Source: an uncultured bacterium
GTDB taxonomy: Bacteria; Planctomycetota; UBA1135; GCA-002686595
Assembly (NCBI GenBank): GCA_943787795.1
Contig: CALSNU010000002.1
Span: 320,001-384,000, forward strand
Direction: 5' to 3'
Length of the DNA stretch: 64,000 nucleotides
This document shows, one piece after another, positions 8,690-18,949 of this stretch (its first letter is position 1; the number at the start of each line of letters is the position of its first letter). A program made the translations under genes and the position numbers. The notes below the pieces were generated by a model. It saw only the letters and a program-made list of their open reading frames with translations. It was not told the DNA's origin and ran no database searches.

Positions 8690-11600
8690 TCAGTTCCGCT
8701 CGACCCACTGCTGGGCGATCGTCCGCAGGTCGATCTCGGCCCCGTCATCGGCGCCGAAGTACCGGCGTTCAATCTGGAGCACCGTCGCGTCCAGCTCCCG
8801 CTGCGTGGCGCTGTCCATGTGGTTCGCCCGGCGGACCTCGCCCAGGAGGGAGAGCACGGTCACGGGGGTGATCTCGTCCGGGAGGCTCGGACCGGCGGTC
8901 TCGGCGTCCTGGGCCCCATCCTCCCTGGGGCGCAGCAGCCAGGCCGCCGCGCCGCCCAGAGCGAGGAGCAGCAGCCAGGGCCACGCCGAGCGGCCTCCCT
9001 CGGCTCCATAGTCGCTGCCAAGCTGGACCACCATCTCGGCGGTCATCAGGTCGGCGTCGTCGTAGCGCTGGAAGACGGCCTGGGTGTCCGCCTCGAGGGG
9101 CGCCGCGAACTGGAACTCGATGGGCGTACCGGCACCCTCGCGAGCCTCCATCTCCACCACCCAGAGGCGCTCGGACACCACGGCCTCCTCGTCGTCGGCG
9201 AAGCGGACCACGGACACGCCCTGCCCCTCGGTCTTGGTGACCTCGAAGCCCTCGGGGGCGAGGTCGACGATCTGATCCAGCTCGGGCACGAGCCCGTTGG
9301 CCTGGGCCTTCACCTCGAGGGTGAGGACGCCCTCGTCCGCGCGGCGTTCGTCAAGGATCTGGGTGACCTGCAGGTTCTCGTGGGGCCGGGTCCCGCCGCC
9401 CGCCGAGGCGTCGATGGCGACCACCGGCGAGGTCACGGGGAGGACCACGTAGCCGGTCACGTCATTGAAGTCGAGGTCCAGCTTCAGGGGCGGGACCCGG
9501 TCCACCGCCGCGTCGCGGGCCGTGGCGAGCACGTAGGCGTAGGGGGTCCGCCGCCAGCCGTAGTCGTCATCGGCCTTCGAGGCGGCGTCCTCGCGGTTGA
9601 AGGTGACGGACACCACGTCGAACTGCTCGCCGAGGGTCGCGCGCACGGACTCCTCGAACTTGTCCCGGTAGTTCTCCTGGGGCCGGCCGTAGTTGTAGTA
9701 GCTGTTGACCGCGTTGGCCTGGTTCTGAAGGTACTTGGCGAAGCCGCCGCTCTCGCGGGCGATCTCCTTGGTGTACCGGATGTCGACCTTGATCCCGAAG
9801 GGCTCCGTGCCGACGTCAGCCGAGCCGTCCACCGCGGTCACCAGCTCGATCTCGGTCACGAGGTCGGCGTAGTAGTCGTAGACCCGGCGCGCGGCCTTGG
9901 CCTGCGGGTGATCACCAACGACCTCGAAGCCCGCCTCGAGGAAGCGGTTCTTGCAGGCGGGGTTCACGCTGCTCAGGCGCGTGAACAGGTTGTTCGCGAA
10001 CATCGCGAGGTGGGCCTCGGCGGCCTCGCCCCCGATATCCTCGAGCATGTCAGAGATGAGCGGGATCTCCTTGCGCACCAGGATCGTCTCCTGGTCCACG
10101 GCCGCGAGGTCGGTCGCGCCGAGGGCCGAGTTGAACCACAGATCGAAGACCTGGGTGGAGTACTCGGAGGGCTTCAGGTCAGGCACCGACTCGACGTAGT
10201 GCAGCGCGGCCTCCCCGAAGAGGTCCAGGGCAGCTCGGCGCCCGCCGGCGAAGTCAGAGCTCTTCTGGAGCTTGTTGCGGTAGTTGTTCAGGTCGTGCAT
10301 CAGCGACGCGCGGGCCGCCTCGAGCTGCCAGGCGCCCACGTGGGCCTCGATGGCCCCGTCCAGCATGGCCGACGCGAGCTCGTAGCCCCGCTGGACCTCG
10401 GCCTCGATGTCCTTCTGCTTGCGGTTGGTGCCCGCGTTCTTCTGGACCTCGGGGGAGCGCCAGATCGTGGCGAGGTTGGCCCGCATGGTCTGGGCCATGG
10501 AGGCGAGGGTCTCGGGGTCGAGGGTCTCGAGGTCGCCAAAGACCCTCTCCATCACCTCGACGCGGTAGATCTCGGCCGCGCTGTGGCTCTGGATGAAGGC
10601 GCGAACCAGGAGCTTAGAGTCCACCTCGACGCCCTCCACTGCGCGCAGCCGCGCCACCCACTCGGAGAGGTCCTCGAGGTTCCGCTCCTGCTTGCTCCGG
10701 GTCAGCGGGATGCCGCTCGCGCGCTGATTGAAGCCGTAGGAGTAGTTGTAGATGTTCGACCGATTGCGGCTCGCGTTCGGGTCGTTGTTCTGGATCCAGA
10801 CGTCCATGAACGAGCGGGCGAGCTCGTTGGCCTTCTTCGGGTTCGAGGCCGCCAGGTCACGGATGAACGGGAAGGCGAGCTTCTCCTCGCCGACCTTCAG
10901 GTAGAGCTCCGCGATGGTCTGATCCACCTTGGGCCGAAGGCTCTCCGGCAGCGCGTCGCGCCAGCCGCCGTCCGGGCGGACCGCGAGCAGGTCGTCCGGC
11001 TCGATGGGGTTCACCGGGCGGTTGTAGTTGTTGTAGCGGTAGCTGTTGTCCTCCCAGTAGATGTTGCCGAAGGCGTCCCGGCGGGTGATCGGGCCCATGG
11101 AGGACTGCTCGGAGTTCTCGTAGGAGTACGCCGCCTCACGGAGCCACGCGTCGGAGAGCAGGACCAGCGTGGGCCGCCACTCCCCCGCGCGCTCGGGGGC
11201 GACCTCGAGCAGAGCGTCCACCGACTCGCGCATGAGCTTCAGGTCCGCGAGGCGGTCCTGGGGACGCGTCGAGCGCTGCACCATCCCCTTGGAGGCCTCG
11301 GCGCCGATGGTGGCGAGCACCTCCATGCCGCGGTCCGGCCGGTCGGTGAACGTCTCCCGGATCCACTCGGAGCCCTTCTCCCCGCCCACGACGCCCGCGT
11401 ACTGAACGGCGCGCTTGAGGGCCTCCCCTTTCAGGTTGTCCTTCAGCTCCCCCGGCGCGAGAACGGCGAGGTTGGCCTCCCAGGCACTGGCGAGCACCTC
11501 AGGGTCGAGCTCCGCCTTGTAGAGGGCGATCCGGTAGCGCGCGATGAGGTTGAGGGCCTCACGGTTGTCGTTGGAGAGCGCGTCCGTGAAGGGCGGCAGG

Positions 11601-12802
11601 AAGGGCTTGAGGTGGATGTCCTGGCGTTGGGCGCTGAGGAGCCAGGCCGCGAACATCGGCTTGACCACCCGCTCCTCCGGCGCCCGCTGGACCTCCATCT
11701 GCAAGCGCGCGACCCAGTCGTCGATGCTGTGCCCCTGGGCGAAGACCCGGGCCACCAACGGCGCGAGCATCCTGGCGTCGGCCGCGGTGAAGCCGCCCGG
11801 CGCGATCCGCATCAGCTCGATGATGTCGTCGAACTCGAAGGCGCACTGCTCCTGGTACTGGTTGAAGCGACCGTTCACCGGCTGCGGGGGCCGCGCGATC
11901 TTCGGCAGCATCTGGGTGTAGATCTGGCGACCGCTCTTGCCCAGGGAATCCAGGGCCGCCTCCACATCCTCCCAACGACCGAGGGTCACGTCGCGCTGGA
12001 AGAGCTGCACGTCTCTTGTGAGCCGCTTGGTGGCGAGCGCCTTGCGCTCCTTCTCCACCCGAGACTTCTCCTTCTTGTAGGCCTTGTGGGCCTCGTTCGA
12101 CGCGTTGTAGGCGGCGAGGTCCGCGTCGTAAGCTGCCTGCAGCTCGGCGTCCGACGCTTCAGCCGCCTGATAGGCCGCGAGGGCCTCGGCGTGGTCCTCC
12201 GCGTCGTGGTCCTCTTCAGCCTCCTGCTTGGCCTTGGCGAGCGCCGCGAGGTCCGCCACGGACCCCACCGGAGCCACCAGCTCCGAGGGAGCCACGGGAC
12301 GCTCGAGGGCCTGCAGCTTGGGCGCCTTCGGCTTCTTCGGCTTGGGCGCCGGCTCCTCCGGCATGGGCGGGTCCTGGAGCTCGGGGTCCTCCGCCGAGGT
12401 CAGCGGAGCCGCCTTGGACCATTCGGCGAGGATCTTGGAGGGCGTGCGGTCGAGGATGGCCTGCTGGAACTTCTGGACGCGCTTGGGGTCGACGGGCTTC
12501 TCCTCCTTCGGGCTCACCTTGGCCCCTGGGCCTCCCGGTGCGGCTCCCAGCATCTCCGCGGGGGGCTCGGGGACCTCCACATCCTCCAGGACGACGACGC
12601 CGCCGGTGGACGAACCCATGGTCATCGCAGGCATCATCTGCACCGGCGCCGTGGTGACCATGATCGGCGCGGCGCCCGTGGAGCCGCTGACGATCACCTT
12701 GGAGGAGAGGCTGATGCCCTGGACCGCGCTCTGCTGGGCGAGAGAGAGCGGGGCGAGGGCGACCGATGCGGCGGCGAAGGCCGCGAGGGTGAGACGGGAC
12801 AT
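8690..12802 (-). CDS. Large secreted, C-terminally membrane-anchored protein of the MoxR-vWA operon (BatD-like position)
   Basis: About 1370 aa. Signal peptide MSRLTLAAFAAASVALAPLSLA, Pro/Lys/Ala-rich linker, helical core, beta-rich C-terminal region and TM segment WPWLLLLALGGAAAWLL. Last gene of the operon. Confidence 0.75.
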   Translation of the reverse strand: MSRLTLAAFAAASVALAPLSLAQQSAVQGISLSSKVIVSGSTGAAPIMVTTAPVQMMPAMTMGSSTGGVVVLEDVEVPEPPAEMLGAAPGGPGAKVSPKEEKPVDPKRVQKFQQAILDRTPSKILAEWSKAAPLTSAEDPELQDPPMPEEPAPKPKKPKAPKLQALERPVAPSELVAPVGSVADLAALAKAKQEAEEDHDAEDHAEALAAYQAAEASDAELQAAYDADLAAYNASNEAHKAYKKEKSRVEKERKALATKRLTRDVQLFQRDVTLGRWEDVEAALDSLGKSGRQIYTQMLPKIARPPQPVNGRFNQYQEQCAFEFDDIIELMRIAPGGFTAADARMLAPLVARVFAQGHSIDDWVARLQMEVQRAPEERVVKPMFAAWLLSAQRQDIHLKPFLPPFTDALSNDNREALNLIARYRIALYKAELDPEVLASAWEANLAVLAPGELKDNLKGEALKRAVQYAGVVGGEKGSEWIRETFTDRPDRGMEVLATIGAEASKGMVQRSTRPQDRLADLKLMRESVDALLEVAPERAGEWRPTLVLLSDAWLREAAYSYENSEQSSMGPITRRDAFGNIYWEDNSYRYNNYNRPVNPIEPDDLLAVRPDGGWRDALPESLRPKVDQTIAELYLKVGEEKLAFPFIRDLAASNPKKANELARSFMDVWIQNNDPNASRNRSNIYNYSYGFNQRASGIPLTRSKQERNLEDLSEWVARLRAVEGVEVDSKLLVRAFIQSHSAAEIYRVEVMERVFGDLETLDPETLASMAQTMRANLATIWRSPEVQKNAGTNRKQKDIEAEVQRGYELASAMLDGAIEAHVGAWQLEAARASLMHDLNNYRNKLQKSSDFAGGRRAALDLFGEAALHYVESVPDLKPSEYSTQVFDLWFNSALGATDLAAVDQETILVRKEIPLISDMLEDIGGEAAEAHLAMFANNLFTRLSSVNPACKNRFLEAGFEVVGDHPQAKAARRVYDYYADLVTEIELVTAVDGSADVGTEPFGIKVDIRYTKEIARESGGFAKYLQNQANAVNSYYNYGRPQENYRDKFEESVRATLGEQFDVVSVTFNREDAASKADDDYGWRRTPYAYVLATARDAAVDRVPPLKLDLDFNDVTGYVVLPVTSPVVAIDASAGGGTRPHENLQVTQILDERRADEGVLTLEVKAQANGLVPELDQIVDLAPEGFEVTKTEGQGVSVVRFADDEEAVVSERLWVVEMEAREGAGTPIEFQFAAPLEADTQAVFQRYDDADLMTAEMVVQLGSDYGAEGGRSAWPWLLLLALGGAAAWLLRPREDGAQDAETAGPSLPDEITPVTVLSLLGEVRRANHMDSATQRELDATVLQIERRYFGADDGAEIDLRTIAQQWVERN

Positions 12803-12928
12803 GGCGATCGGGAGGGTCACGGGCAGGTACATCAGGTTCGAACAACGGCGCCCATGGCGCGTGGTTTGGCGAGAGAGGCGGGACACGCCCCCCCCGCGCC
12901 CCCCCGGCGGAGGGGCATCTCCTCAAAC

Positions 12929-12966
12929 ACGGGGCCTGCCCGGCGTCACCGCCGGGCAGGCCCCGT
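12929..12966 (-). terminator. Hairpin (17-bp arms) with a short T-rich tail on the minus strand
   Basis: ACGGGGCCTGCCCGGCG-GTGA-CGCCGGGCAGGCCCCGT then GTTT, 13 nt after the TGA at 12980-12982. Confidence 0.65.
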
Positions 12967-12979
12967 CGAGCTCGTCGGC

Positions 12980-13711
12980 TCAGGACCCTGAACCGTCGGG
13001 CGGCGGACCACCGCTCGCGCCACGGGAATCAGAGGGCTTCTTTCCAGACTTGGGCTTGCCCCGACCGGGGCGCTTTCCGGAACCGTTTCAGGTCCCGTTG
13101 CCGCTTCATTGGTTGGGCAGGGGCAGGCCCTGCAGCTCCTCCAGGTCGAGCCTGGCGAGCTTGATGGAGGACTCGAGGTCCTCCATGTGGGTTCGAGCCG
13201 CTTGCTCGTCGCCGCGCGCCTCGGCGCGCTCGGCGAGCAGCCGGTAGCTCTGACGGGCGACCTCGGCCTCGGGCTCCCACTCCTCGCGGGAGTAGCCCTC
13301 CAGGCGCATCAGCCAGGTGTAGTAGTACTGGGCGTTGGCGAGCCCCTCGCGGGCCTCGTCCAGCATCGCGCCCTCGGAGGCCTCGAGCGGAGACAGCTCG
13401 TCGACGAGCCCCGAGAGCTCGGAGCGCGCCGCGATGAGATCGGAGGAGGCCAGCTTGGCCTTGGCCGCGCTCAGGCGAATGCGCCGCGCGCTCCGCTCGA
13501 GCGCCGGGGTGTCGAGGCCCGGCAGGCTCTTGAGCGCCGCGTCGTAGTGCTCCACCGCGAGCGCCCAGTCCTTGGCTTCGGCGGCCTCGCGCGCGGCCGA
13601 GAGTTCGGCGTCCACGAGGTCGAGCTGGACGCCGTCCTGGCCCGGGCCTTCGTGGTAAGCCCACGCTCCCACAGGGAGCAGGAGCCAGCCGGCGATCATG
13701 AATCGTCTCAT
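12980..13711 (-). CDS. Exported TPR-like (BatC-like) protein; putative selenoprotein with two in-frame UGA (U202, U208), 243 aa. Conventional call ends at 13106 (201 aa).
   Basis: N-terminal export signal and helical body. The frame continues LPLPNQ-UGA-SGNGT-UGA-NGSGKRPGRGKPKSGKKPSDSRGASGGPPPDGSGS-stop. SECIS-like hairpins follow both UGAs, and the terminator lies only after the third stop. Confidence 0.65.
13042..13097 (-). promoter_or_regulatory. Two overlapping bacterial SECIS-like hairpins
   Basis: Hairpin 1 (13078-13097) is CGGGACC-UGAAAC-GGUUCCG. Hairpin 2 (13042-13082) has lower stem UUCCGGA/UCUGGAA and upper stem GCCCC-GGUC-GGGGC. Confidence 0.55.
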
Positions 13712-13803
13712 CGTGTCGTTCCTCGTGAGGTGCTCCGAACGGAGCAGGAGGGGGTTCTGTTGGAGTCTATCGGCAGATCCGGAGTCGGTGACCCAATCGA
13801 CCG

Positions 13804-14805
13804 TCAAGAGCGGGTGAGTTCGCCCGGGGCGCCTCGCCAGGAGGTTCTACGGTGGGCCCAGGGGCTCCCGAGGGCCCGCAGCAGCGGCGGCAGCAGCGCG
13901 AGGAGCAGGGCGCCGAGCACCAGCGCCAGGAGGGCGTACTCGCGACGACCGAGCTTGAGCGCCGCCTCCCGGTCCGCCCCCGCGGTCACGGTCCGGAGCA
14001 CCTCGCTGGCCACCTGGCGCTTGTTCCCGTCGTGGTACTGGCCGCCCAATCGGAGCGCCATCTGACGCAGGGCGGACACATCCTGACGGGAGTTCCGCCC
14101 GTTGATGAAGCTGCCCTTCGTGGGGTCGCCGATCCCGACCACGAGGACGCCCCCGATGGCGGGCGGCATCTTCGGCATGCCGGTGGGCGGGAGGGTGTCG
14201 CCGTCGCTGGCCACGATGAGGGTGGTGCTCCCCGGCTCCCAGGGAGCCGCGATGCGCGCCGCCTCCTCGAGCCCGTCGAACAGGCGCGTCTCGCCGGACT
14301 TGAAGGCGAAGTGCATGGGGAGGTCGCTCAGCACATTGCGCACGACCTCGGAGTCCGAGGTGTCCACCACCACCGGCATGGCGCCGGTGTAGGTGGCGAT
14401 GATCGAGATCTTGTACTGCCCGATGGCGACCCGCCCGAAGATCGAGTCCAGCACGTCCCGGGCGCGACCGGTGCGGCTCTGGGCCGCGTCGGGCCCGGCG
14501 TCCTCGAGGCGCATGGAGGGTGAGACGTCGAGGACCAGCACCAGGTGCTTCCACTCGTCCGGCCCCTTGTCCACCAGCCGGTGGGCCTTGGGCTTCACGT
14601 CCAGCAGCAGGCTCGAGAGTCCGAAGGCCAGCGCCGCCGCACCCGCGGCCCGGAGCAGCGGCACCACCTGGACCCAGGCGGCCGCGCGGCCTCCGGGCCC
14701 GAACGCGAGGTGACGCACGCGGCGGATCCGGCGCAGGTGCAGGAGCTCTCCGCCCAATACGAGGGCGAAGGCCGCCGCCGTGAGGATCATGGTCCAGTCG
14801 CTCAT
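13804..14805 (-). CDS. vWA domain membrane protein (BatB-like)
   Basis: MIDAS VLDVSPSM, VASDGD, VVGIGDP, and N- and C-terminal TM segments. Confidence 0.85.
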   Translation of the reverse strand: MSDWTMILTAAAFALVLGGELLHLRRIRRVRHLAFGPGGRAAAWVQVVPLLRAAGAAALAFGLSSLLLDVKPKAHRLVDKGPDEWKHLVLVLDVSPSMRLEDAGPDAAQSRTGRARDVLDSIFGRVAIGQYKISIIATYTGAMPVVVDTSDSEVVRNVLSDLPMHFAFKSGETRLFDGLEEAARIAAPWEPGSTTLIVASDGDTLPPTGMPKMPPAIGGVLVVGIGDPTKGSFINGRNSRQDVSALRQMALRLGGQYHDGNKRQVASEVLRTVTAGADREAALKLGRREYALLALVLGALLLALLPPLLRALGSPWAHRRTSWRGAPGELTRS

Positions 14806-14812
14806 CGCAGGA

Positions 14813-15751
14813 TCACCACGGCGTGGCCCTCAAGAACAGCTGGAGCAGGGCGTGGGCGGCGAGGGCGATCAGCCCGATCCAGCACCACAGCCCGAAGTCG
14901 TCGAGCTGCTCACCGGCGACCTTCTCGAGCTCGGCCACCTGCATCTGATCGATGCGCTTGAACACCGTCTCGAGCGCCACGGGGTCGCCGGCGGCGAACA
15001 TCTCCCCCCCGGTCAGGGAGGCGATGTTGAGCACCTCGCCGGGCACGTTGCCGTCCGCCACGTGGACCCCGTAGACCGTCACGCCGCTCTTCTTCAGCCG
15101 ATCCGCGATCACCTCATCTTGGCCGCCGGAGAGGTCCGACGAGAACCCGTCGGAGATCAGGATGATCATCCGATCTCCCTCCTCGCGGCTCGCCAGCACG
15201 TCGCGGCAGGCGTTCAGCGCCTTGCCGATGGACGTCCCCCCGAACCAGGGCGGCAGGGCGCCCCGCTTGGGGTCCATGAAGGGCGGCGCACAGCGGAAGG
15301 CGCTGGTGTCGTTGGTGAGCGGGCACCAGTGCAGGACGTTGTTCCCGAAGAAGGTCAGCCCGAAGGCGTCGCCGTCCCGGAAGTCCAGGAACTCGTTGAT
15401 GGCCTCCATCGCGGCGTCGTAGCGGGTCCCCTCCCCGAACGAGGCGGTCATGGAACCGGACACGTCCACGCAGAACTGAATGTTGGTGAGCTTGCGCTTG
15501 GTGGAGGGCGCGCCGATCTTCTGGGGGCCAGCGAGGAGCACCACGGCCACCGCGAGCAGCAACGGCGACACGGACTCCGCGAGCCGCAGCAGGACCGAGA
15601 GCCCGAGCCCACGCGACCGCCGGTCGGCCCGGGCGGTGCCGTCAAAGGGCAATGCCAGGCGTCCCCCCTTGCCGGACCAGACGAGGGTCAGCAGCAGCAG
15701 CGGAATCGCCAGCAGGGCGAGGGCCCAGGGGTGACCGAAGCTCAGGCTCAT
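14813..15751 (-). CDS. vWA domain membrane protein (BatA-like)
   Basis: N-terminal FGHPWALALLAIP (BatA-type), MIDAS CVDVSGSM, GTSIGKAL and ILISDG. Confidence 0.88.
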   Translation of the reverse strand: MSLSFGHPWALALLAIPLLLLTLVWSGKGGRLALPFDGTARADRRSRGLGLSVLLRLAESVSPLLLAVAVVLLAGPQKIGAPSTKRKLTNIQFCVDVSGSMTASFGEGTRYDAAMEAINEFLDFRDGDAFGLTFFGNNVLHWCPLTNDTSAFRCAPPFMDPKRGALPPWFGGTSIGKALNACRDVLASREEGDRMIILISDGFSSDLSGGQDEVIADRLKKSGVTVYGVHVADGNVPGEVLNIASLTGGEMFAAGDPVALETVFKRIDQMQVAELEKVAGEQLDDFGLWCWIGLIALAAHALLQLFLRATPW

Positions 15752-16605
15752 CCCCGGTCTCCCCCGGGATCAGGCGTCCCGCGATAGGGGGCGAGGAGCG
15801 CCTCGAGGTCCACGGCGTCCCCCTCTGAGCCCGGGCGGTGGAGCCAGCGTTCGAGCTGGAGGAAGAGCGGTCCGGCCTCCTCGTCTGCGCGGAGCAAGGC
15901 CACCGCCTCGGCGACCGGGGTGGCGCTCAGGTTTCGACGGTCGCGCCAGTGGGCCAGCAGGAGCCGCTCCAGCTCCGCCTGCTGGGCGGTGTCGAGGTCG
16001 CCCGATCGCGCGCGCTCCACCAGGGGCGCGAGTCGATCGGCGAGGGTCAACGGCGCCTCGGGTCCGGCGCTATTGGCCGCGTCCTGGCGTCGGCGCCCGA
16101 CGGTCATGAGCGCCACCAGGCCCGCGGCCCAGAGGATCCCCAGGACGGTCATGCCTGTGCCGTAGCCCCCCACCCCATCCGGCGCGGGGACCTCGAGCTC
16201 GTTGGGCTCGACCACGTCCACCGGCAGCAGGGCCTCGACCTCGATCTTCAGGGTCGGCGGATCCCAAGTGGCGCCCGCCTCGGCGGGCTCCAGCAGGCTC
16301 GCGAGGTTCAGGGTCCCCTCCACCAGGGGGGTCACCTCGAGGTTGTAGCGCCACCCCGAGCCGTGGGGGAAGACGTTGAGCACCCGCACGATGGCGTCCG
16401 CGCGCCCAGGATCCGCCACCGGCTTGGCCCGGAGCCGTGGCCCGGCAATCGGCTGCTCCTCGATCCGCACCCGCATGCCCACGGAGGTGCGGGCGACGGG
16501 TTCAGACTGGGGGGCGCGCGGGGCCGAGGCCCCCAGCGGCGGGGCGCTGGCCGCGAGCGGCGGGGCCAGCAGCGCACCGAGCAGGAAGGTGGTGGCGAAC
16601 ATCAT
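15748..16605 (-). CDS. Hypothetical membrane protein of the MoxR-vWA operon
   Basis: Signal peptide and one internal TM segment (VLGILWAAGLVALM). ATGA overlaps with both neighbours. Confidence 0.75.
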   Translation of the reverse strand: MMFATTFLLGALLAPPLAASAPPLGASAPRAPQSEPVARTSVGMRVRIEEQPIAGPRLRAKPVADPGRADAIVRVLNVFPHGSGWRYNLEVTPLVEGTLNLASLLEPAEAGATWDPPTLKIEVEALLPVDVVEPNELEVPAPDGVGGYGTGMTVLGILWAAGLVALMTVGRRRQDAANSAGPEAPLTLADRLAPLVERARSGDLDTAQQAELERLLLAHWRDRRNLSATPVAEAVALLRADEEAGPLFLQLERWLHRPGSEGDAVDLEALLAPYRGTPDPGGDRG

Positions 16606-17492
16606 CGTCCTCCCGCGAGTACGGCGCGGTCCTTGAGGAACAGCCTGAGGGACTGGGCGTAAGGTTGATCGGTGCGGATCAGAAGGTGGTCGATCCCGCC
16701 CCTGCGGAGCTCCTGGCGGGCGGCCTCGGGATCGAAGCGCTGGCGGCGGCCGTGGGTCACGAACTCCGCCCCGCTCTCGGCCTCCTCCGCGCGCAGGAAG
16801 CCCGCGCCGCGCAGCTCGACCTCCGCGGGGTCCTGGAGCTGGAGCACGACGACGTCGTGCACCTGCGCCATGAGCTTCAGGGCGTCCATGGCCTCCGGCT
16901 CGTGCAGGTCACTCAACACGAACACGAGCGCCCGATTGCTGAGCCGGGCGTTGAGCTCCGTGACCCGCCGGGCGAGCGTCGTCCGCTCACCCTCGCTGTA
17001 CGTCCGGAGCTTCACGAGCCACTGCATGACCTCGTCCTTGGCGAGGCTCGGCTGGACCCGCAGGTCGCGCTCGCCGGTCCCCAGGAGCCCTACCGGGCTC
17101 ACCCGATCCAGGCAGGCGAAGGCCAGCCCGCCCGCGATCTGCGCCGCGACCTCATACTTGCTGAGGCGCGTCGAAGAGAGGGTCATGGACCCCGAGGTGT
17201 CGAACAGGATCCACGCCGGCATCCGCTTGGGGGCCTCGTATTCCTTGATGTGCACCTCACCCGTGCGCGCCGTCACGCGCCAGTCAATCGCCCGCACGGG
17301 GTCGCCCGGGACATACGGGCGAGACTGCACGTACTCGAGGCCCGAGCCCAGGAACCGCGAGCGGTCCGTGCCGTGGCTGAGAGTGTCCGCCAGGCGCCGA
17401 ATGGCGACCTGGTAGCGCCGCGTGTCGAGCGGATCAACCGCGGGCAGCGTGTGCTCCGGCGCGGCGCGCCGGGGGGCTCCGGTACGCTCCAT
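16602..17492 (-). CDS. DUF58 domain protein
   Basis: GSGLEYVQSRPYVPGDPVRAIDWRVTAR, FDTSGSM and VLSDL. Confidence 0.92.
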   Translation of the reverse strand: MERTGAPRRAAPEHTLPAVDPLDTRRYQVAIRRLADTLSHGTDRSRFLGSGLEYVQSRPYVPGDPVRAIDWRVTARTGEVHIKEYEAPKRMPAWILFDTSGSMTLSSTRLSKYEVAAQIAGGLAFACLDRVSPVGLLGTGERDLRVQPSLAKDEVMQWLVKLRTYSEGERTTLARRVTELNARLSNRALVFVLSDLHEPEAMDALKLMAQVHDVVVLQLQDPAEVELRGAGFLRAEEAESGAEFVTHGRRQRFDPEAARQELRRGGIDHLLIRTDQPYAQSLRLFLKDRAVLAGGR

Positions 17493-17496
17493 GGCC

Positions 17497-18507
17497 TCAG
17501 GCAGCGCCCAGCTCGCCCAGCATCTCCTGGAGGATGACCGAGGTGTCCCGGCCCTCCGCCAGCGCCTCGTAGGTGGCGCGGATGCGGTGCAGGATGACGT
17601 CCTCGGCGAGGGCAAAGAGATCCTCGGGGATCACGTAGTCGCGGCCGTGGATGAGCGCCCGGGCCCGGGAGGCCTTGACCAGCGCGATGCCCGCCCGGGG
17701 CGACGCGCCGAGTTCCAGCTCGGGGTGCTTGCGGGTGCGGTCGACGATCTCCATCACGTGCTCGATGAAGGCCTCGGAGACGTGAACCTTGGAGACGTCC
17801 TCCATGGCACGGGCCAGCTCGTCACGCCCGCCGACGCTGCCCTGGTCCACCATGTCGAACTCGGTCTTGACGGTGGCGCCGCCGCTCTTGTCCCGCTGGA
17901 TACCGAGCTTCGCGTTCCGACGCAGGACCTCCTTCTCGTCCTCGTTGGTCAGGTATTGGAGGCGGTGCAGGAGCATGAAGCGGTCCAGCTGCGCCTCGGG
18001 CAACTCGAAGGTCCCCGCCTGCTCCACGGGGTTCTGGGTCGCGATCACGAGGAACGGAACCGGCAGGCCGTAGTTCTGGTTGCCGATGGTGATCCGCCGC
18101 TCCTGCATGGCCTCGAGGAGCGCGCTCTGCACCTTGGGCGCGGCGCGGTTGATCTCGTCGGCGAGGAGCAGGTTGGTGAAGATCGGCCCCTTGTGCGTTT
18201 TGAACGTCTGGTCCCGCTGGTCGAGGATCTCGGACCCGAGGATGTCCGAGGGGAGCAGGTCGATCGTGAACTGGATCCGCGCGAAGTCGAGGTCCACGGT
18301 CTTCGAGACCGCCGCCACCAGGAGGGTCTTGGCGAGGCCTGGGACGCCCTCCAACAGGAGGTGTCCCCCGGTCAGGAGCGCGATGAGGATCCGCTCCACC
18401 ACCACCTCCTGGCCGACGACCACCCGGCCGACGCGCTCCTTGATCTCGCCCAGGAAGCGGGCCGTATCGTCAAACTGGGGGGCGGGAGGGCGCTCGATCG
18501 TCGTCAT
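17497..18507 (-). CDS. moxR: MoxR family AAA+ ATPase
   Basis: GHLLLEGVPGLAKT, RIQFTIDLLPSDILG, LLADEINRAAPKVQSALLEAMQE and ATQNPVEQAGTFELPEAQLDRF. Confidence 0.95.
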   Translation of the reverse strand: MTTIERPPAPQFDDTARFLGEIKERVGRVVVGQEVVVERILIALLTGGHLLLEGVPGLAKTLLVAAVSKTVDLDFARIQFTIDLLPSDILGSEILDQRDQTFKTHKGPIFTNLLLADEINRAAPKVQSALLEAMQERRITIGNQNYGLPVPFLVIATQNPVEQAGTFELPEAQLDRFMLLHRLQYLTNEDEKEVLRRNAKLGIQRDKSGGATVKTEFDMVDQGSVGGRDELARAMEDVSKVHVSEAFIEHVMEIVDRTRKHPELELGASPRAGIALVKASRARALIHGRDYVIPEDLFALAEDVILHRIRATYEALAEGRDTSVILQEMLGELGAA

Positions 18508-18949
18508 GGGAAGGGATAGCTGGTGAGGCTCGGCGCGAGGCCGGGCTTCCTGGGGCTGAAACGGGGTCGGATCAGACCCGGCGCCGCTCGGGCAGGGGCG
18601 GGGAGGTCCGATCGGGGTCACATTGCAGCAGCGAGGTCGCCGAGCCAGGGGGCTGAGTCGGGTTCCAGGCGCCTGCGTTCGCCGGGGTCACCGACCCTAC
18701 GCGGCGCGCCGCAGGTGGGTTACGTCCCCATCCTGGATTGTGTTGGCCCGGGCACAGTTTGGCCCGGCTTCGAGCCCGCCCGAAATCCCGCGCCTGTGGC
18801 ATGGTCGGGGCACCCTCCGCCGCTGGCTCATCCCCTGGATTTGCGGAAGTTCTCGAAGATCCCGACCGACAAACGCATGGAGGGCTCGGCCGTACGACTC
18901 GACGGCCACGCTTAGCCCCACGACCACTCGCAACCCAACCACCTCTCCC

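Follow-up and report, generated by a model that had tools for sequence, protein, structure and literature searches.

A probable two-selenocysteine protein with a TPR-like domain in a MoxR-DUF58-vWA (Bat-like) operon of Planctomycetota

The stretch of DNA analysed here, called the window, consists of 64,000 nucleotides from an uncultured bacterium of the Planctomycetota (GenBank assembly GCA_943787795.1, contig CALSNU010000002.1, positions 320,001 to 384,000; all positions within the window are counted from its first letter). On its minus strand, next to genes for a MoxR-type ATPase, a DUF58 protein and two von Willebrand factor A (vWA) proteins, lies a gene whose frame runs through two in-frame TGA codons before it ends at a third. 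Comparison with relatives makes it very probable that both of the internal codons, UGA202 and UGA208, encode selenocysteine (Sec). An earlier note, made from the letters of this DNA alone, had proposed such a read-through gene with two recoded UGAs, and this proposal is supported by Cys-type homologues, by a tail shared among relatives and by the Sec machinery of the genome. The gene apparently stands for a new family of bacterial selenoproteins, which has an unusual arrangement of two UGAs and two hairpins in the genus of the window.

The gene starts at ATG 13711 on the minus strand (the positions of all features are given in Table 1). When TGA is read through, its frame ends in ...LQGLPLPNQ-U-SGNGT-U-NGSGKRPGRGKPKSGKKPSDSRGASGGPPPDGSGS-stop. 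Translation thus puts the three TGAs at codons 202, 208 and 244, exactly as the earlier note had described them, and it also bears out that the first 201 residues contain no Cys. Around this site the G+C content is about 70%, so that chance alone is expected to leave a frame open after a stop; the sequence in itself is no proof and the case rests on relatives. A global reassignment of TGA, which the note had also discarded, is excluded since TGA is the usual stop in this genome: it ends 7/7 of the neighbouring genes checked, and the long open frames of the genome stop at TGA in 1518 cases, at TAG in 342 and at TAA in 50. Contigs from an independent DNA run and from three RNA-library runs (three studies) cover all three TGAs, which stand there unchanged with no alternative letter; presence in a contig of an RNA library is not proof of transcription.

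A search with the read-through product returned 428 proteins at E <= 1e-3. These homologues fall into two length classes. The shorter ones, of 197-206 amino acids (aa), stop at LPLPxQ, with a coverage of 82% of the query. The longer ones, of 236-246 aa, cover 99% of it and continue as LPLPSQ-C-xxC-xxxx-C-K..GKKPG..KDARGASSGPPPDxSGS, ending at the position of the third TGA of the window. In the longer class the UGA codons have counterparts that are cysteines. The column of UGA202 is Cys in 31/31 homologues (alignment A3), and that of UGA208 is Cys in 16/16 full-length homologues (alignment A1, made with MAFFT), although this second correspondence, to the third conserved Cys, is less certain because the alignment crosses indels in a low-complexity stretch. 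Close relatives from metagenomes differ solely by having TGC or TGA at the second site (U-A-G-C versus U-A-G-U). Further into the tail, R230, A232, P236, P237, D239 and G242 are invariant in alignment A3. Homologues with cysteines at or near the TGA positions and with a common PPPDxSGS end, as the earlier note had expected them, do exist. As judged by comparison with them, the tail is translated and the UGAs stand at the Cys positions of the relatives.

An exhaustive profile search collected 1058 representatives at E <= 1e-3, of which 577 remain at 1e-10 and 179 at 1e-30. About 33 of the 150 representatives listed stop at profile positions 195-198, that is, at the residue before the Cys or Sec. 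Judging from these end points, the short homologues are gene calls of Sec-type genes truncated at the Sec codon. Seven public entries (P0012, P0013, P0021, P0031, P0034, P0039 and P0043) are named 'hypothetical protein', have 201-206 aa and end in LPLPxQ. P0043, with 206 aa, is labelled by its source as coming from a planctomycete isolate in culture.

Within the genus of the window, a six-frame search that tolerates stops gave matches in 17/17 genomes. The tails could be read in the genome of the window (G000) and in 16 of its same-genus relatives; in the seventeenth (G005) the gene is split over two contigs, with two TGAs reported in the fragment and the tail unread. They all follow the pattern LPLPxQ-U-xGxGT-U-(N/D)GSG...RGAxxGPPPDGSGS at 64-99% identity, and both internal stops are TGA in G000 and in all 16 relatives. 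The terminal stop, for its part, is TAG in three members of the genus, and TAG or TAA in 10 loci among 46 complete tails. We compared nonsynonymous with synonymous differences (pN/pS) over all pairs of 16 genus loci, which are 64-99% identical. The ratio is 0.27 in the last 15 codons of the tail, 0.38 in 60 codons of the body and 1.02 in the 15 codons 3' of the terminal stop. By this measure the tail is under purifying selection and the frame beyond the third stop is neutral, in line with the conserved tail that the earlier note had named as support for its reading. The first 20 codons from UGA202 show a pN/pS of 0.61, with a pS of 0.29 versus 0.43-0.54 elsewhere. This low pS fits a constraint at the level of RNA.

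Sec insertion at UGA208 through a selenocysteine insertion sequence (SECIS) with a GGUC loop is strongly supported by comparative evidence. The bacterial SECIS model calls for a loop of 3-9 nt with G at the two initial positions, a stem of 4-16 bp, a distance of 16-37 nt from the UGA and a minimum free energy <= -7.5 kcal/mol (PMC13188914). Hairpin 2, which lies inside the coding sequence (CDS), has for UGA208 a GGUC loop, a stem of 5 bp, a spacing of 21 nt and an energy of -10.7 kcal/mol, all within the model. A hairpin with a GGUC loop and a stem of at least 5 bp (5-7 bp) is present in 41/41 Sec-type loci with enough sequence, its loop lying 21 nt from the last UGA in 38 loci, 27 nt in two and 18 nt in one. 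The inner five pairs of hairpin 2 are paired in 100% of 33 distinct sequences, with compensatory changes at 4/5 of them (e.g. GC 17, CG 13, UA 2, GU 1). In an alignment that was anchored on the loop, covariation scores 0.521; shuffles give 0.161, with 0/500 as high as the real value, and slid controls do not exceed 0.162. To be set against this score, 5/33 sequences had two GGTC sites, of which the one with the better stem was taken. The compensatory changes alter the peptide (RPGRG, GLGRG, AGRPR, GRGRG), and since the residues change along with the stem pairs, it is the RNA rather than the amino acid sequence that is constrained in hairpin 2. RNAalifold recovers hairpins 1 and 2 independently, and both lie below the limit of -7.5 kcal/mol. 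A scan of positions 12850-13250 against Rfam brought no family near its gathering score.

The closest known counterpart of hairpin 2 is the SECIS of E. coli fdhF, the apical loop of which also begins with GGUC. As in fdhF, an in-frame UGA is followed by a short hairpin within the coding sequence, and the 21 nt found here lie within the 16-37 nt of the model (PMC13188914). Unlike in fdhF, there are here two UGAs, 18 nt apart, the second of which stands in the loop of an extra hairpin and the first of which is off the canonical spacing to either hairpin.

This extra hairpin, hairpin 1, starts 8 nt 3' of UGA202, with UGA208 standing in its loop. Among 13 distinct sequences its 3' arm, GGUUCCG, does not change, not even at synonymous sites, whereas the adjacent Gly codon outside it varies freely. 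Several observations weigh against a regular signal for UGA202. The distance from UGA202 to the GGUC loop is 39 nt, outside the 16-37 nt of the model. In hairpin 1 the loop comes only 15 nt after UGA202, and its first letters are UGA, instead of G followed by G or U. The sole change in the stem of this hairpin, from G-U to A-U, is one-sided and makes no compensatory pair, and, taken as a whole, the region of 78 nt is no more stably folded than shuffles (z -0.68). Three ways of decoding UGA202 might accommodate these facts. Hairpin 1 may be a second, atypical SECIS. Alternatively, hairpin 2 may serve both UGAs, the first at a stretched distance. Or a folded hairpin 1 would loop out its nucleotides and leave UGA202 about 8+6+5 nt from the GGUC loop. 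One might go further and speculate on a structural ruler, whereby a single GGUC SECIS serves both UGAs (hairpin 1, when folded, would loop out 18-20 nt and so equal the distance that UGA208 has once the ribosome melts hairpin 1) and the U-x5-U arm also provides a periplasmic MoxR-vWA (Bat-like) machine with its long-sought centre for redox chemistry or metal handling. Taken as one claim, this is unlikely.

The genome also encodes the machinery that the earlier proposal presupposed, namely selA, selB, selD and selC. SelA (E 7e-120), SelB (with its winged-helix domain in a 677-aa frame), SelD and tRNA-Sec (69 bits versus a gathering score of 47) all match above curated cut-offs. Elsewhere in the same genome, selA is directly followed by selD (G000:C5:184772-187201; L001 and L059), and selD has itself an in-frame TGA (..YAACAG-U-AAKMP..), i.e. 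it is of the Sec type. An FdhA-like gene (G000:C4:645138-645914; L062), also outside the window, has an in-frame TGA in CAAT-U-HAP. Its UGA is followed by a hairpin, GGUGGCC-GGUCU-GGUCACC, the loop of which comes 18 nt later and shares its motif with that of hairpin 2.

We then asked how the family is distributed relative to SelA in 401 genomes sampled evenly from the phylum. A strong match to the family (E <= 1e-38) is found in 44 of them, 33 with an in-frame TGA and 11 without. Among the 33 genomes with TGA forms, 32 have a strong match to SelA; the exception (G265), which is not among the SelA-matched genomes, is 83% complete. The match to SelA is weak or missing in 5/11 genomes with Cys forms (G156, G258, G377, G209 and G416). 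Yet SelA is above the cut-off in 298/401 genomes, and relatives are not independent. Given how common SelA is in this phylum and the kinship of these genomes, the co-occurrence is moderately strong evidence, supporting but not decisive.

A crude scan of the genome for TGA followed by a hairpin with a GGTC loop gave 87 sites, 19 of which have open frames on both sides. It can only serve as a source of leads because it missed both the gene studied here, where UGA1 counts as a stop, and the FdhA-like site, where the loop has 5 nt. Outside the window, sites with hairpins of 7-9 bp and long frames on both sides are G000:C2:479457 (-), C6:416008 (+), C1:1395775 (+) and C6:480750 (-). At the first of these, which reads U-V-V-C, 784 codons are open ahead of the site and 96 behind it. 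Such sites may be additional unannotated selenoproteins.

The Sec motif varies among relatives. The form U-x-G-C occurs in 20 loci, U-x5-U in the genus of the window only, and U-x-x-U in G193 and four metagenome contigs, where a close relative (L085) has TGC at the second TGA. Five loci have tails with Cys only; one further locus, L071, could not be read in frame. In three genomes of another family the tail is of the type C-U (LPLPGGCUQGSG), and 18 nt beyond its UGA comes a hairpin with a GGUUC loop. This C-U subfamily (L072-L074, in G341, G202 and G312) is more distant, and its tails end in ..RARANGSGS. Two genomes (G265 and G217) have a single U and no Cys. A maximum-likelihood tree was computed from 41 bodies, without the duplicate or near-identical rows L012, L014, L015, L017, L032 and L033. 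In this tree the 13 rows with U-x5-U share a single branch (support 100/99), which is placed among the U-x-G-C forms of their own taxonomic family. This single branch makes the two-Sec form one derivation at the level of the genus: on the tree, U-x5-U arose once, in the genus of the window, from U-x-G-C forms. The relatives with U-x-G-C, U-x-x-U, C-U or a lone U mean that the U...U pair is no general requirement of the family, and the lone-Sec forms argue against an intramolecular Se-S or Se-Se bond as an obligatory feature. The exported diselenide or metal-binding motif that the earlier note saw in U202 and U208 is a putative one.

Prokaryotic Sec motifs known so far include UxxC, UxxU, CU and, in TsoB, UxxxxU (PMC13188914, Table 1); U-x5-U is not among the motifs in the parts of this table that were read. 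As in most predicted redox selenoproteins, the motifs U-x-G-C, U-x-x-U and C-U pair here with Cys forms. Unlike the known selenoproteins with such motifs, the family has no thioredoxin-like or folded active site, and its Sec lies in an arm that is predicted to be disordered, behind a TPR-like domain.

This architecture was predicted with AlphaFold2 on an alignment of 32 rows (mean predicted local distance difference test, pLDDT, 85.1; predicted template modelling score 0.73). The N-terminus looks like an export signal, as the earlier note had remarked, and this holds as an inference from the sequence and from the predicted helix at residues 2-21. A hydropathy scan with a window of 19 residues does not reach the transmembrane cut-off of 1.6, which makes a cleavable signal more likely than a transmembrane helix. 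In the central domain, Foldseek found no match at E <= 1e-3. Its best rows are TPR domains, 2fbn, 1elr (Hop TPR2A) and 5lyp (Sgt2), with E from 7e-3 to 1.5e-2 and template modelling scores, normalised to the target, of 0.67-0.76. The Pfam models TPR_2, TPR_16 and TPR_14 match with E 0.026-0.7, below their cut-offs, and scans with Pfam and NCBIfam gave no model above threshold. No thioredoxin-type family turned up in these scans, and the Sec motif does not stand at the N-terminus of a helix. From about residue 200 the tail has a pLDDT of 42-52 and no predicted secondary structure.

Table 1. Features of the selenoprotein gene, its predicted product and its surroundings, with positions in the window.
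Feature	Position	Strand	Remarks
Selenoprotein CDS, full	12983..13711	-	243 codons, of which 202 and 208 are predicted as Sec; 99% covered by homologues of 236-246 aa
UGA1 (Sec202, predicted)	13106..13108	-	invariant Cys in 31 homologues of alignment A3; TGA in every Sec-type locus read
UGA2 (Sec208, predicted)	13088..13090	-	within the loop of hairpin 1; 21 nt 5' of the GGUC loop; aligned by MAFFT to the third conserved Cys
True stop, third TGA (codon 244)	12980..12982	-	Cys-type homologues end here
Hairpin 1, CGGGACC-UGAAAC-GGUUCCG	13078..13097	-	RNAalifold; alone -11.6 kcal/mol, z -2.6
Hairpin 2, SECIS core GCCCC-GGUC-GGGGC	13058..13071	-	loop 13066-13063; -10.7 kcal/mol
Signal-like segment, residues 1-21	13649..13711	-	MRR, short hydrophobic core, A-W-A before YHEGPGQ; AlphaFold2 helix 2-21
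TPR-like all-helical domain, residues 23-195	13127..13645	-	block-mean pLDDT 92-98 over residues 31-190; Foldseek
Disordered C-terminal tail, residues 196-243	12983..13126	-	Sec motif, basic Gly/Lys/Arg stretch, conserved RGASGGPPPDGSGS end; pLDDT 42-52
Intergenic hairpin, perfect 17 bp, GUGA loop, then GUGUUU	12929..12966	-	-44.5 kcal/mol, z -8.8
1398-aa protein, signal-like N-terminus, downstream	8693..12886	-	no Pfam/NCBIfam match
vWA membrane protein 2, 333 aa	13807..14805	-	Pfam VWA_2; immediately upstream
vWA membrane protein 1, 312 aa	14816..15751	-	Pfam VWA_2 and VWA
285-aa protein, two hydrophobic segments	15751..16605	-	no family match
DUF58 protein	16605..17615	-	Pfam PF01882, E 7.7e-41
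MoxR-type AAA+ ATPase	17500..18621	-	Pfam AAA_3 (E 7e-62), AAA_lid_2, bpMoxR

The selenoprotein gene is a regular member of its gene row. A homologue of the second vWA protein is found upstream of the family gene in 45/48 loci, and one of the 1398-aa protein downstream of it in 40/48 loci across the phylum, several of the misses being loci that end at the end of a contig. Each of the vWA proteins has three hydrophobic segments flanking the vWA domain, and a D-x-S-x-S motif is invariant in the alignment of the second one (A5). The 285-aa gene lies between the DUF58 gene and the first vWA gene, and a counterpart of 299 aa holds the equivalent place in G156 (L070).

This setting recalls the Bat operon. 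The three-helix layout of the vWA proteins is shared with BB0173 of Borrelia, in which mapping has placed the VWFA domain on the periplasmic side (PMC5700661). The likeness to the Bat operon concerns the order of the genes: MoxR, DUF58, two three-helix vWA proteins and a TPR-like protein with an N-terminal hydrophobic segment. The selenoprotein takes the position of BatC in this MoxR-DUF58-vWA-vWA (Bat-like) operon, and the comparison with BatC concerns gene position and fold only, the TPR assignment resting here on fold. Among hits at E <= 0.01 in the nine proteins scanned, the Pfam families of the BatA N-terminus and of BatD are missing, so that we describe the setting as Bat-like without counting it among the Bat operons. 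For Bat itself a periplasmic complex that deals with oxidatively damaged proteins or with reducing power has been proposed, and its function is still called elusive (PMC3557215). The passages on Bat that were consulted make no mention of Sec or of a Cys-rich tail in BatC. A complex predicted from two vWA domains, Mg and the Cys-type member, all of G156, scored 0.02, against a mark of 0.32.

Taken together, we propose that SelB with Sec-tRNA(Sec) would read UGA202 and UGA208 as Sec, and that translation would end at the third TGA to give 243 residues. The recoding signal would be the GGUC-loop hairpin inside the coding sequence, placed 21 nt from UGA208 as it is from the UGA of single-Sec relatives. 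Hairpin 1 would either be the own SECIS of UGA202 or, when folded, place UGA202 at a distance at which the GGUC hairpin can serve it. The product would then carry a signal-like N-terminus, a TPR-like domain and a flexible arm with the Sec motif, a basic stretch and the PPPDGSGS end. Reasoning by analogy, it is possible, though we put it at somewhat less than even, that the Sec arm, outside the cytoplasm, serves the vWA complex as a redox-active or metal-binding centre. The TPR domain would be its scaffold, and in its action the arm would resemble the mobile Cys-Sec tail of thioredoxin reductase. The animal enzyme has a mobile C-terminal Gly-Cys-Sec-Gly arm. The likeness, which is one of analogy and not of homology, is in the Sec on a flexible C-terminal extension, and one subfamily here even has G-G-C-U-Q-G. 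Unlike thioredoxin reductase, this family has no flavoprotein domain, and its arm is basic, 40-50 residues long and ends in PPPDGSGS.

Among the other explanations, the one that survives best is a selenium switch, whereby a tail-less TPR protein would be made, by termination at UGA202, when selenium is scarce and the full Sec protein when it is available. Two successive UGAs, the first with a non-canonical SECIS spacing, should lower read-through, and the TPR domain is complete before UGA202. Single-Sec and Cys relatives keep the tail, however, suggesting that the tail is the working part of the protein, and we consider the switch rather improbable.

Read-through with another residue is very unlikely. 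Leaky termination, perhaps stimulated by the hairpins, might insert a near-cognate Trp, Cys or Arg at the UGAs. Downstream RNA structures can indeed stimulate read-through in general. Yet the UGA positions pair with Cys, and TGA forms are found almost only in genomes with SelA. Moreover, the hairpin has the GGUC loop of the FdhA-like Sec site at a spacing that agrees with the bacterial SECIS model.

It might also be argued that the gene simply ends at the first TGA and encodes a TPR protein of 201 aa, the frame behind it being a decaying relic of a Cys-type gene or a chance product of the high GC content. This is where every public gene call stops, as do the representatives ending at 195-198 in the profile, TGA is the commonest stop in the genome, and at high GC long frames are common. 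But neither a relic nor chance would account for a tail under selection across 16 loci next to a neutral frame beyond the third stop, for two TGAs kept in every genus member read while the terminal stop varies in codon and not in position, and for a covarying GGUC hairpin at a fixed distance. We hold this explanation to be highly improbable.

The strong intergenic hairpin to which the earlier note had drawn attention does exist after the third stop, with the 17 bp and the stability given in Table 1, but it is not the SECIS of this gene. It is located between the selenoprotein gene and the 1398-aa gene and kept only in the closest relatives, being absent from L015 and L018. Its loop is 156 nt from UGA202 and 138 nt from UGA208, too far downstream to serve either; as a SECIS of these codons it is excluded by this distance, compared with the 16-37 nt of the model (PMC13188914), and by its poor conservation. 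A variant, in which it would recode the third TGA and add an ADELDGACPAVTPGRPRV extension, lengthening the protein by 18 residues, formally fits the bacterial model, with a GUGA loop 30 nt after the TGA and a very stable stem, but can be discounted almost entirely in view of the pN/pS of 1.02 behind that codon, the TAG or TAA in its place in 10 loci and the Cys-type homologues that end there. Probably the hairpin is a terminator or attenuator, one that lacks a proper T run. A scan of positions 12700-13900 for consensus promoters and terminators called nothing, the hairpin having escaped because its T run is weak.

In 2026, 119 families and subfamilies of prokaryotic selenoproteins were catalogued (PMC13188914). 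Table 1 of this catalogue lists no family that is TPR-like, linked to MoxR or vWA, or from planctomycetes, and a search of the text for such terms was likewise negative. The earlier note knew of no described selenoprotein family in MoxR-vWA operons, and our literature search did not find one either, nor any paper describing this family; the search was made outside subscription journals, so an earlier description is not fully excluded. A paper on a planctomycete genome mentions one unnamed 'hypothetical' Sec candidate with a Cys homologue in Rhodopirellula, which could not be matched to the family from the table that lists it (PMC4807772).

The family is widespread in one phylum, with Sec forms in 33/401 of the species genomes sampled. 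Since public annotation cuts these genes at the Sec codon, the working part of the protein is missing from protein databases. A Sec motif on a disordered arm, rather than in a folded active site, is unusual among bacterial selenoproteins. In the genus of the window, the two UGAs, with the second inside a conserved hairpin, make a natural test case for the decoding of closely spaced Sec codons by SelB. Finally, the family places a Sec/Cys centre in the MoxR-DUF58-vWA (Bat-like) gene row, and this makes directly testable the old proposal that such systems deal, outside the cytoplasm, with oxidative damage or with reducing power.

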